A DNA stretch of 64,000 nt, from NCBI GenBank assembly GCA_963833095.1, contig CAWHWQ010000001.1, positions 448,001-512,000 of the forward strand, given 5' to 3'. Made by a program: the position numbers. Below are positions 18,001 through 21,000 of this stretch, in pieces (positions within the stretch are counted from its first letter, which is position 1; every line of letters starts with the position of its first letter). The stretch is from Vulcanimicrobiota bacterium. GTDB lineage: Bacteria; Vulcanimicrobiota; Vulcanimicrobiia; Vulcanimicrobiales; Vulcanimicrobiaceae.

Positions 18001-21000
18001 CAGAACCCGAACCGGCGGATGGCCGGTTCGGGCCCTGACGTAGATAGGCGATGAGCGCGAAGCAGACGATCGCTATTGCAATAAGAACGATCATCGAGTT
18101 AACGAGGGTTAATATTTACTGCTGCTGTTGCCGTTGTTGTCGTCATAGCCGCGAGACATCGAGAGTGCCTCTTTGGTGACCGACTGCAAGAACTCGTCGT
18201 TCGTGCGCGTCTGGGCCATCTTATCGAGGATGATCTCGGTGATATCTCCGGTGTTGAGAACCGACGTGGCGCGGCGAAGCATCCAGATCTTGCGCATCTC
18301 TTCGGTCGTAAGCAGCAACTCTTCGTGTCGCGTGCCCGAACGCTTGATGTCGATTGCCGGGAACACGCGCGACTCGGCGAGTTTACGCGTGAGGTTGAGC
18401 TCCATGTTGCCCGTGCCTTTGAACTCTTCGAAGATCACGTCATCCATCTTGGATCCGGTTTCGATGAGCGCCGTGGCAATGATCGTGAGCGATCCGCCTT
18501 CTTCGATTTTGCGCGCAGCGCCGAAGAAGCGTTTGGGTTTGTGGAGCGACGCGGTATCGAGACCACCCGAAAGCGTTCGGCCCGAACTCGCGACGACTTG
18601 ATTGTAGGCGCGAGCGAGGCGTGTGATCGAGTCGAGGAGGATCACGACGTCTTTGCCGAGTTCCACCAAGCGTTTTGCGCGCTCCATCGTCAGTTCGGCG
18701 ACGGCGGTGTGATTCTCGGGATGCTCGTCGAAGGTCGATGCGACGACTTCGCCGTCGACCGTGCGCTGCATATCAGTAACTTCTTCCGGCCGTTCGTCCA
18801 CGAGTAGCGCAATGATATGCGCATCGGGATGATTGATCGAAATGGAATTGGCGATGTTCTTAAGCAGCGTGGTCTTGCCGGCTTTGGGCGGCGAGACGAT
18901 CAGCGCGCGTTGACCCTTACCGATCGGGCAGAACAGATCGATGACGCGAGTCGAGAGCTGCGTCGCTCGAACCTCAAGCTTAAAGCGCTCGTTCGGATAT
19001 ATCGGCGTGCCTTTTTCGAAAAGGCGCCGGCCCTTGATCGCTTCGGGGTCGAGATCGTTGACACGATCGACGCGAATGAGGCCGTAATACTTCTCGCTCT
19101 CTTTGGGGCGGCGTACTTGGCCTTCGACCATGTCGCCGCGGCGCAGCTCGAAGCGCCGAATTTGCGACTGGCTCACGTAGATATCGTCGTTGCCGATGAT
19201 ATAACCGCCGCGTCGCAAGAAGCCGTAGCCCTCGGGAAGGACGTCGAGGATCCCGCTAGCCATCTCCATGCCCGAGCGCTGTTGCTGGGTGGCGAGGATC
19301 GCGGCGATGATCTCGTCTTTCTTCATGGTCGTCGGATTGCCGAGCGCGATTTCATTTTGCTCGGCGATCTCGACCAGTTCAGCCTTCTTCTTATCTTCGA
19401 GATCGGCTGCGGTCAAAAGCGGCGGCCCAGTTTCCGCTTGAGGAAACTGTTCGTTGTGTTGTTGAAATTGCGGGTTGAACCCGTGGCGGCGGCGCGAACG
19501 GCGGCGACGTCCGCCACCCTGCTGCCCATTGTTATTGTTGTTGGGGCGATGTTCCGTTTGCAGAGGAGTGTTCTCTCTCGTAGAGTCGTACGCATGAACA
19601 ACGCGACGCTGTCACGGGCGAGGCTGCCACGCGAGCGTCGAGTCCGAGGTACGGGGGGGATTAAACGACCACACTATACCACAGGCCGGGGAAGCCGCAA
19701 TGTGCCCCGCCTCGTCGTCGGCTCGACCAGGCGTTATCGTCAAAGCGAAGCTCTCCCGGCTAGATCCGCGCAGATTCGCTCGCCTAGTCATTAAGGCGAA
19801 AGGTTTTTTGGGCCGCTCAGGTAGGGATTGCCGCGTTCGTAAAACCTCAGGAGCCGGCGCGCGGCCGAGCTCACGCCGATTCTGCGGCTGCGCCGAATCG
19901 CTCCCACAGGCCGGTCGGGCGGATGAAGTTGCAACGTCGAATTGGTCAGAAGATTGCAGCCATCGAGCGTCCGATCGATCTCCAGCGCTTGGGACAGGCG
20001 CCCAGGCCCGCTGCAAAGGAGGCGCGGATCCTCTAGCCCACGGCGTTCACGCATCAGCGCGATGCCCTCGAGCGGTTCGAGAGCACGAATCAGCACCGCT
20101 GCCCCCTGTCCATCGGCCTCACTCGAAACGTTGACGCACCAATACCGCCCGTAAATACGGTAGACGTAGGCGTGAAACGGTGCGCCGAACATCGTGCGAT
20201 TGCGGGGACGTACGCCGCGAAAAGCGTGCGATGCCGGATCGCCGATGAGGTAGGCTTCGGTTTCAATGATGCGGCCCGCAGAGGTCCCGGCCGGGCCTAG
20301 GCGCACGAGCCGCCACCCGATGAGCGCCCGCGCCAGTGCTTGCGTCTCCTTCGGCAACTCTGGAAGAACCGACGGTCTACGCGGCGCTATGCAGTACCAA
20401 TTCCGCGCGAGCGCGCGCCTCGAGATCGTCATCGCCTCCGGTGCAGACCGCGTACGCGGCGAAACGGTTCAGCGCGCAACGCAAGCGCACGTACGGCAAT
20501 ACTAACGGCGGCGGCACATTGCGATGCTCGTTGCAATCGGCAACCAGCTCGCCGTCGGCGAGTCCAAACGACGCGCGCTCGAGGCCGCGTTCCCGCAGCA
20601 TCGCGGCGACCGCGGTCAACGCCGCGTAGCCAATCTCGCGACCTCCCAGACCCTCGAAGCGCGCGACGCGGAAGGCGACCCGCACAAGCCGCTCTCCCGC
20701 CCGCGTCGTCAGGCGAGCGTAGGCGACTCCCTCCCCGAGCCGGTCGGCGGCGAACCCTAGCTGTACCTGCACCATACCCTTATGATACCGAACGTATGTT
20801 CGTCTCGTCAACCGGGTGTGGCTCCAGCAAGCTCTGATAGAGATCGATCATCGCGTCGACCTGCCGAACCGCCGAGAAGCGGCTCGCCGCCGATTTCGCG
20901 CGACGGGCTGCCGCGGCGTCCGGCGCCGCGGGGATCTCGCGTAGGGCGTGAGCGAAGGCACCGCGATCCGGCGCGACGATGCGCGCGGCATCGCCCAGCA

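Follow-up and report, generated by a model that had tools for sequence, protein, structure and literature searches.

Several bacterial genes have conserved non-canonical start codons, namely infC (AUU/AUA), pcnB (AUU), repA (CUG), rpsL of Deinococcus-Thermus (CUG) and dnaA (AUC) (PMC2830850). Only about 0.024% of bacterial genes start with CUG, which in E. coli yields 0.86% of the output of AUG (both figures cited in PMC11497404), and start codons in general switch to CUG very rarely (PMC5622118). The rho gene is known for another kind of control: leader attenuation underlies its autoregulation in E. coli, Salmonella, B. subtilis and Caulobacter, and a preprint describes attenuation as the only mechanism known for B. 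subtilis rho (10.1101/2023.12.01.569620). Reduced initiation raises Rho polarity (PMC12360218), and termination by M. tuberculosis Rho requires ATP hydrolysis (PMC4499133). At the protein level, Rho of Type 2a carries, ahead of Rho_N, an "initial region" longer than 25 aa that is QN-rich, Arg-rich and predicted to be disordered (Moreira et al. 2024, PMC11347177). In M. tuberculosis and M. luteus, which have GC-rich genomes, a disordered N-terminal insertion domain (NID) helps Rho to engage structured RNA (PMC13650167); the NID is described as arginine-rich (PMC11347177).

We analysed rho in a 64,000-nt stretch of a Vulcanimicrobiota genome (the window, along which positions are counted) and compared it with the rho loci of related genomes. 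As in the infC and rpsL type, a near-cognate codon occurs lineage-wide on a core gene-expression gene and was missed by annotators. Unlike rpsL and dnaA, for which there is peptide evidence (PMC2830850), the CUG start of rho is supported by sequence comparison, and a structured leader accompanies it. The long C-rich leader resembles that of the four autoregulated rho genes; however, no weak start codon is described for those genes in that preprint, and attenuation needs an active motor, which the Rho of one genus (g10) appears to lack. Like Type 2a Rho, the window protein has a QN/Arg-rich region, predicted to be disordered, before Rho_N, whereas the g10 protein, unlike the functional Rho of PMC11347177 with its highly conserved ATPase domain, has lost its motifs. 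The NID differs in size and place, being about 150 aa long and lying after Rho_N, while the extension described here has about 48 aa and lies before it. A literature search that covered few subscription papers returned no CUG-started rho, no rho of this lineage, no pseudo-ATPase Rho and no combination of these ingredients. In PMC2830850 "rho" has no match, and in PMC11347177 "start codon" and "Eremiobact" are absent from the main text, as are lineage names from one supplement. Non-AUG starts, initial regions of Rho and leader autoregulation of rho are each known; what appears to be new is their combination, the leader hairpin and a motif-degenerate Rho with its CUG kept.

A candidate CUG start and an arginine-rich extension

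The rho gene of the window lies on the minus strand in an open frame that spans 19611–18109, with its stop codon at 18111–18109 and an upstream in-frame stop at 19614–19612. Its product scores as an equivalog Rho (TIGR00767, 639 bits for a cut-off of 509), matches Rho of the PDB with an E value of 1e-147, and has a core (18109–19419) made of Rho_N (residues 54–97), the RNA-binding domain (103–174) and the ATPase (205–409; Pfam). The sites that we take, from alignment, to be Walker A and B, the catalytic Glu, the R-loop and the arginine finger are all intact. Close homologues carry Eremiobacteraeota, Vulcanimicrobiota or Baltobacteraceae in their titles. Between rho and the gene for an S4-pseudouridine synthase there is a short minus-strand ORF with a hydrophobic N-terminus (17909–18093), inside which a 16-pair hairpin (18037–18001) has a terminator-like score. 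Further along the same strand, a signal-peptide ORF and the next, helical-repeat-like ORF (16630–17163 and 15837–16745) overlap in different frames, which suggests one gene split by a frameshift.

The first in-frame ATG, GTG or TTG of this rho is a TTG at 19416–19414, which gene callers use as the start (protein P0012 begins here). It lies 49 codons 3′ of a CTG (19563–19561) that shares the frame of Rho and that an earlier note had proposed as the true start. We examined this region in 108 genomes, picked to span genera, in which the sequence upstream of rho is intact; rho was matched in 177 of the 201 genomes of the class. One genome with a frameshift in Rho_N (G091) and three loci that are truncated or not rho (L021, L029 and L030) were left out before counting, and G101 (frameshift in the extension) and genus g37 were kept outside the count and examined later. 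The resulting 107 genomes comprise 97 from families f1 and f2 (31 genera) and 10 from the sister family f3; G030 and G168 are unpublished, and no conclusion hangs on them. Because kin genomes are not independent, we also used counts per genus and on the tree.

At the homologous codon, we found CTG in 92/97 genomes of f1 and f2, and otherwise TTG (three genomes, all of genus g32), ATT (one) or ATC (one); at least one genome of 29 of the 31 genera has CTG. Family f3 has GTG in 10/10. Every substitute is thus a start-capable codon, and neither AUG nor GUG occurs in the 97 genomes of f1 and f2, although one substitution would suffice. CTC, which supplies 39% of Leu codons in the genome and is the most frequent of them, is never found at this column; elsewhere in the alignment, nine conserved Leu columns have mixed codons, with CTC frequent. 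When changes were counted by parsimony on the tree, the start codon had undergone 3, as against 16–43 at eight Leu columns of the core, and of the 32 Leu columns that are invariant in g10, the CUG column alone uses a single codon. Upstream of the CUG, in-frame stops occur within five codons in 10/97 genomes, 1-nt indels occur between the Shine-Dalgarno (SD) tract and the CUG, and an unsupervised hexamer analysis placed the coding boundary one codon 5′ of the CUG. As a positive control, the same approach recovered the infC start (ATA, ATC or ATT) in 5/5 genomes (L260–L264). In sum, (i) the codon is kept as a codon, (ii) an SD-like tract, albeit weak, stands at the proper spacing and (iii) the coding signature begins there, as in other conserved non-AUG starts. 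The earlier proposal that rho is annotated 49 codons too late was therefore upheld by a start column unlike Leu and a coding-like extension, and translation very probably begins at CUG 19563 and yields a Rho of 484 aa.

In most outgroup families the start of rho is an ATG that follows a clear SD and coincides with Rho_N or lies close to it. In f3 (L022–L028 and L101–L103), 111–293 codons separate the GTG from the Rho_N helix, a much longer region with ERP/ERxDR-type repeats (Arg/Glu/Pro). The rho of g37 (L207, L259) is divergent, with a short extension, no ATG, GTG or TTG before Rho_N and a shared ATT after an AAAGAAG tract. Single frameshifts in rho were seen at L092 (G091, in Rho_N), L205 (G101, in the extension) and L287 (G165, in the ATPase), in highly contiguous assemblies; they are possibly sequencing errors.

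The predicted initial region (19420–19563, minus strand) has 48 residues, is rich in Q, N, G, P and Arg, and contains the Arg tract RRRRSRRRH (19509–19483). It reads LQTEHRPNNNNNGQQGGGRRRRSRRRH...EQFPQ in the window, in agreement with the Q/N/G- and Arg-rich extension in frame with Rho that had been described before. Its length is 41–60 codons in 97/97 genomes, 96/97 have a stretch of 10 residues with 6 or more Arg, and the composition is 19% R, 13% P, 13% Q, 11% G and 8% N. Median changes at codon positions 1, 2 and 3 were 7, 4 and 25 in the extension versus 2, 1 and 22 in the core, a core-like pattern which strongly supports that the extension evolves as coding sequence. It has no NCBIfam match, and an AlphaFold model gave pLDDT values below 50 for residues 1–47, consistent with an unstructured segment. 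If the CUG is the start, the protein falls into Type 2a, since Rho_N begins at residue 54, more than 25 aa precede it, there is no insertion region, and the extension has a QN/Arg bias and predicted disorder. Because the region depends on the CUG start, typing of Rho from annotations misplaces the lineage. By analogy with the NID of M. tuberculosis, the extension probably helps to bind structured, GC-rich RNA.

How did annotation treat this region? None of 68 public gene calls begins at the CUG: 21 begin 3′ of it, and 47 run past it to scattered starts 9–82 codons 5′. The description of the extension as unannotated thus fits the former and does not fit the latter. The V. alpinum protein P0054 has 24 extra residues. 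An upstream "RLYER" peptide was considered as coding and rejected, being interrupted by stops and indels, and a leaderless start was discarded because there is no −10 element at that position.

Initiation signals and a structured leader

The weak SD-like purine tract GAGAGAGA (19572–19579, minus strand) stands 8 nt before the CTG, and flanking CU tracts can pair with it. The last GAG lies 7–9 nt before the start in 80/97 genomes. Pairing of GAGAGAGA with the standard anti-SD amounts to −4.6 kcal/mol, a value that 26% of 500 interior positions reach. The SD thus rests on positional conservation, not on pairing energy, and the purine-rich SD of the earlier note is a weak one. A CUC:GAG mini-stem was paired in 96% of cases with nearly no two-sided change. 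A search for altered initiation machinery was negative: the anti-SD, tRNAfMet (including its G-C pairs) and 16S positions 1338/1339 are all canonical, the 16S in 4/4 loci from relatives, G000 having no assembled 16S. With a canonical initiator tRNA and canonical 1338/1339, the CUG is expected to initiate weakly, as it does in E. coli, and translational control through a weak CUG start, also suggested earlier, is plausible.

We rejected CUG as a common start in genome G000, where a strong SD precedes 2.4% of CTG (18/746), 2.2% of CTC (24/1072) and 9.2% of ATG codons, a comparison of limited power. The phoH gene (G000:C6:40567–41625, minus strand, L230) has an apparent CTG start after AGGAG, as do L232, L235, L237, L247 and L251; this amounts to 6/30 genomes, with ATG, TTG or GTG at the homologous site in the rest. 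Since phoH also seems to use CUG, the codon appears to be tolerated in the lineage.

Upstream, a likely promoter was recognised from its sequence (19673–19700, minus strand), with TTGCGG (19700–19695), a spacing of 16 nt and an extended −10 element TGn-TATAGT (19681–19673) about 110 nt 5′ of the CUG. Transcription would start near 19666. A −10-like hexamer lies 70–190 nt upstream in 81/97 genomes by our own pattern; a consensus promoter scanner called 0 promoters. Assembled RNA contigs of three studies span the leader and the CUG, one of them extending past the promoter; strand, start and level are not visible in them. The RNA data comprised 21 runs with small word shares, four of which were taken further, and we do not count them as evidence.

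The 5′ leader (19564–19666) would be about 103 nt long and non-coding: the spacing between leader motif and CUG is spread over all three frames (29, 38 and 16 of 83 genomes). C exceeds G in 80/81 leaders and 96/97 extension-coding regions versus 50/97 cores. In the window this skew, which a rut-like leader would show, is modest, within the top 5–9% of controls; of 335 upstream regions used as controls, 5% reach the leader value, and much of the leader is paired. A long irregular hairpin (19587–19653) is predicted with a folding energy of −35.4 kcal/mol (z −2.2 in the window); per genus, the median z was −1.7, and only 11/31 genera fell below −2. The basal stem of this hairpin covaries. In 64 of 92 f1 leaders, taking at most four per genus, 90% of cells were paired and 8/13 pairs showed two-sided change; the covariation score was reached in 0/500 shuffles, and slid controls scored much lower. 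Pair counts on an alignment fitted with a model (R1) are biased towards the structure and not independent of it.

The hairpin ends in a conserved tip, GGC-AGCCUC-GCC (19617–19628), and we found GCAGCCTCGC in 78/97 genomes, or 83/97 if one variant base is allowed. The tip is missing in 14/97, g24, g26, all five f2 genomes and g32 being among the absentees. Because it is absent from CUG genomes of g24, g26 and f2, tip and CUG are separable. Pairing of the tip GCAG with the CUGC of the start is not supported: the two could pair, but AUU and AUC genomes retain the tip and some CUG genomes lack it. A search of Rfam with the leader found no family, with one chance match (E 4.1). The leader covariance model matched once in G000, at rho, and R1 matched 27 of 56 held-out loci, including f2 weakly (18–26 bits) and none in f3, g37 or the outgroups. 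A regulon for the motif was discarded, given the one model match in G000 and the pattern in 81/201 genomes nearly always at rho, with three occurrences on other contigs. The leaders of g12, g27, g47 and others have an extra 5′ segment of 30–40 nt (GTCGCG...CGCGAC, hairpin-like) that is absent from the genus of the window. A covarying leader specific to one gene suggests regulation.

Degenerate motor motifs and probable loss of rho

In genus g10, 14/14 genomes lack the GKT of Walker A, the Asp of Walker B, the KGTG of the R-loop and the GTR arginine (arginine finger). The same motifs are lost in P0054 of the cultured Vulcanimicrobium alpinum. In two g10 genomes (G031 and G181) Rho falls below the TIGR00767 cut-off, and neither genome has a second rho-level match. 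All 14 keep the CTG, the leader tip and the Arg tract, and identity among their Rho proteins is 90% in the RNA-binding domain versus 77% in the ATPase. The g10-type protein is a probable pseudo-ATPase Rho.

Decay is not limited to g10. The ATPase motifs are partly decayed in g54 and g34; g39 has lost Walker A and kept the CTG; and in g37 neither Walker A nor the Arg-rich extension nor the leader is left, and no canonical start is visible. The loci with lost motifs are L267, L268, L273–L279 and L281–L285 (g10), L269 (g39) and L259/L280 (g37), and the proteins P0027, P0054 and P0066; the motif row of G165 is void owing to its frameshift in the ATPase. The Rho RNA-binding family was not found in 5/5 genomes of three other genera that are 94–97% complete (G040, G133, G098, G105 and G083, two of them single contigs), and 24/201 genomes of the class had no rho match. 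Thus, rho was probably lost in several genera.

Given that M. tuberculosis Rho must hydrolyse ATP to terminate transcription, classical attenuation is not enough to account for the CUG and the leader in g10. Motor-independent effects of Rho on RNA polymerase may play a part. The retention of CUG, leader and extension without a motor hints at a control of Rho that is independent of termination.

Possible roles of the CUG and its leader

What could the weak start do? In the reading that we favour, with a probability of about 0.5, the weak CUG, an SD that is weak and in part occluded, and the C-rich hairpin leader would together form a negative-feedback device that works through RNA binding by Rho. 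Initiation at the CUG would be rare, and hence the leader would be free of ribosomes. Rho could then bind pyrimidine-C elements (the 5′ C run, the AGCCUC loop and the CU tracts around the SD and start) and reduce its own synthesis, while the disordered Arg/QN-rich region may act as an extra RNA-binding arm, as the insertion domains of Mycobacterium and Micrococcus suggest. With an intact motor, binding could lead on to Rho-dependent attenuation of the kind seen in other bacteria. In g10, without the motor motifs, the attenuation step cannot hold, and binding would have to suffice by occluding the initiation site. A broader version is tentative, and we would not count on it: throughout the order, Rho may be an RNA-binding translational repressor of itself via its leader RNA and CUG, with a motor-less, non-terminating job, for which this control is still required, in one large genus that includes V. 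alpinum, other genera having lost rho.

Alternatively, in a mechanism reminiscent of infC and pcnB, the CUG could sense initiation fidelity, so that Rho synthesis is tied inversely to IF3 or to the state of the ribosome and the level of Rho is coupled to translation capacity, the leader hairpin serving something else. Such a sensor has a precedent in PMC2830850. It would fit g10, because no Rho motor is needed; two of the three replacements of the CUG are the infC-type codons AUU and AUC, and the lineage has a non-AUG infC together with canonical tRNAfMet and 16S determinants. IF3, however, does not discriminate against UUG or GUG, the codons of g32 and f3, and the rho-specific leader is left unexplained; we regard the sensor as unlikely. 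The CUG might also be a static dosage limit that keeps an aggregation-prone, Arg/QN-tailed Rho scarce, or a frozen context in which an RNA motif holds its C, with no feedback in either case. The start of phoH drifts among CUG, UUG, AUG and GUG, in line with this idea, and for Q/N-rich regions of Rho, disorder, droplet formation or prion-like behaviour is predicted (PMC11347177). Moreover, UCC at −4 to −2 and CAA at +4 to +6 underwent 0–5 changes on the tree and are about as conserved as the CUG, so that selection may in part preserve the RNA context and not codon weakness. This equal conservation is the strongest argument against a codon-specific purpose. Static or frozen explanations nevertheless seem rather improbable to us, because 0/97 genomes have switched to AUG or GUG, one substitution away, and because the covarying leader speaks for regulation.

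The start itself could be construed differently. Two isoforms might be made: the CUG would give the long form, and an internal AUG or UUG just before Rho_N a short form like that of E. coli. The earlier note had cautioned that such a downstream codon is also conserved. An ATG indeed occurs at the PP[M] site, the position at which ordinary Rho starts in the outgroups, but in 47/97 genomes only, and a TTG at the next codon in 18/97, so that this caveat did not hold. The ATG was gained or lost 17 times on the tree, SD energy is no better with it than without it (−3.5 versus −3.9, p = 0.25), and 27/97 genomes have no ATG, GTG or TTG between the CUG and the Rho_N helix, all of which makes a second isoform very improbable. 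Finally, the CUG could be an ordinary Leu codon and the real start an upstream GUG or AUG, or a frameshift from a leader ORF. Some in-frame canonical codon does lie 5′ of the CUG in 54/97 genomes, and one at −9 codons, present in 16/97, is used by several gene calls. Yet 43/97 genomes have none upstream and 13/97 none anywhere before the Rho_N helix; together with the stops just 5′ of the CUG, the upstream spacing in all frames and the constant absence of CTC from the site, this leaves a start elsewhere only a slight chance.

Few lineage-wide conserved CUG starts have been described, and rho would add one; the amount of Rho, which polices untranslated RNA, would then hinge on initiation of the weakest kind. 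The N-terminus of Rho would be corrected across an abundant soil order in which none of the 68 gene calls begins at the CUG, and surveys of Rho disordered regions that build on annotation can assign lineages to the wrong type. Within the family, rho ranges from intact through motif-degenerate to undetectable, a natural series with a cultured member in which motor-independent functions of Rho and the role of its Arg tail are testable.
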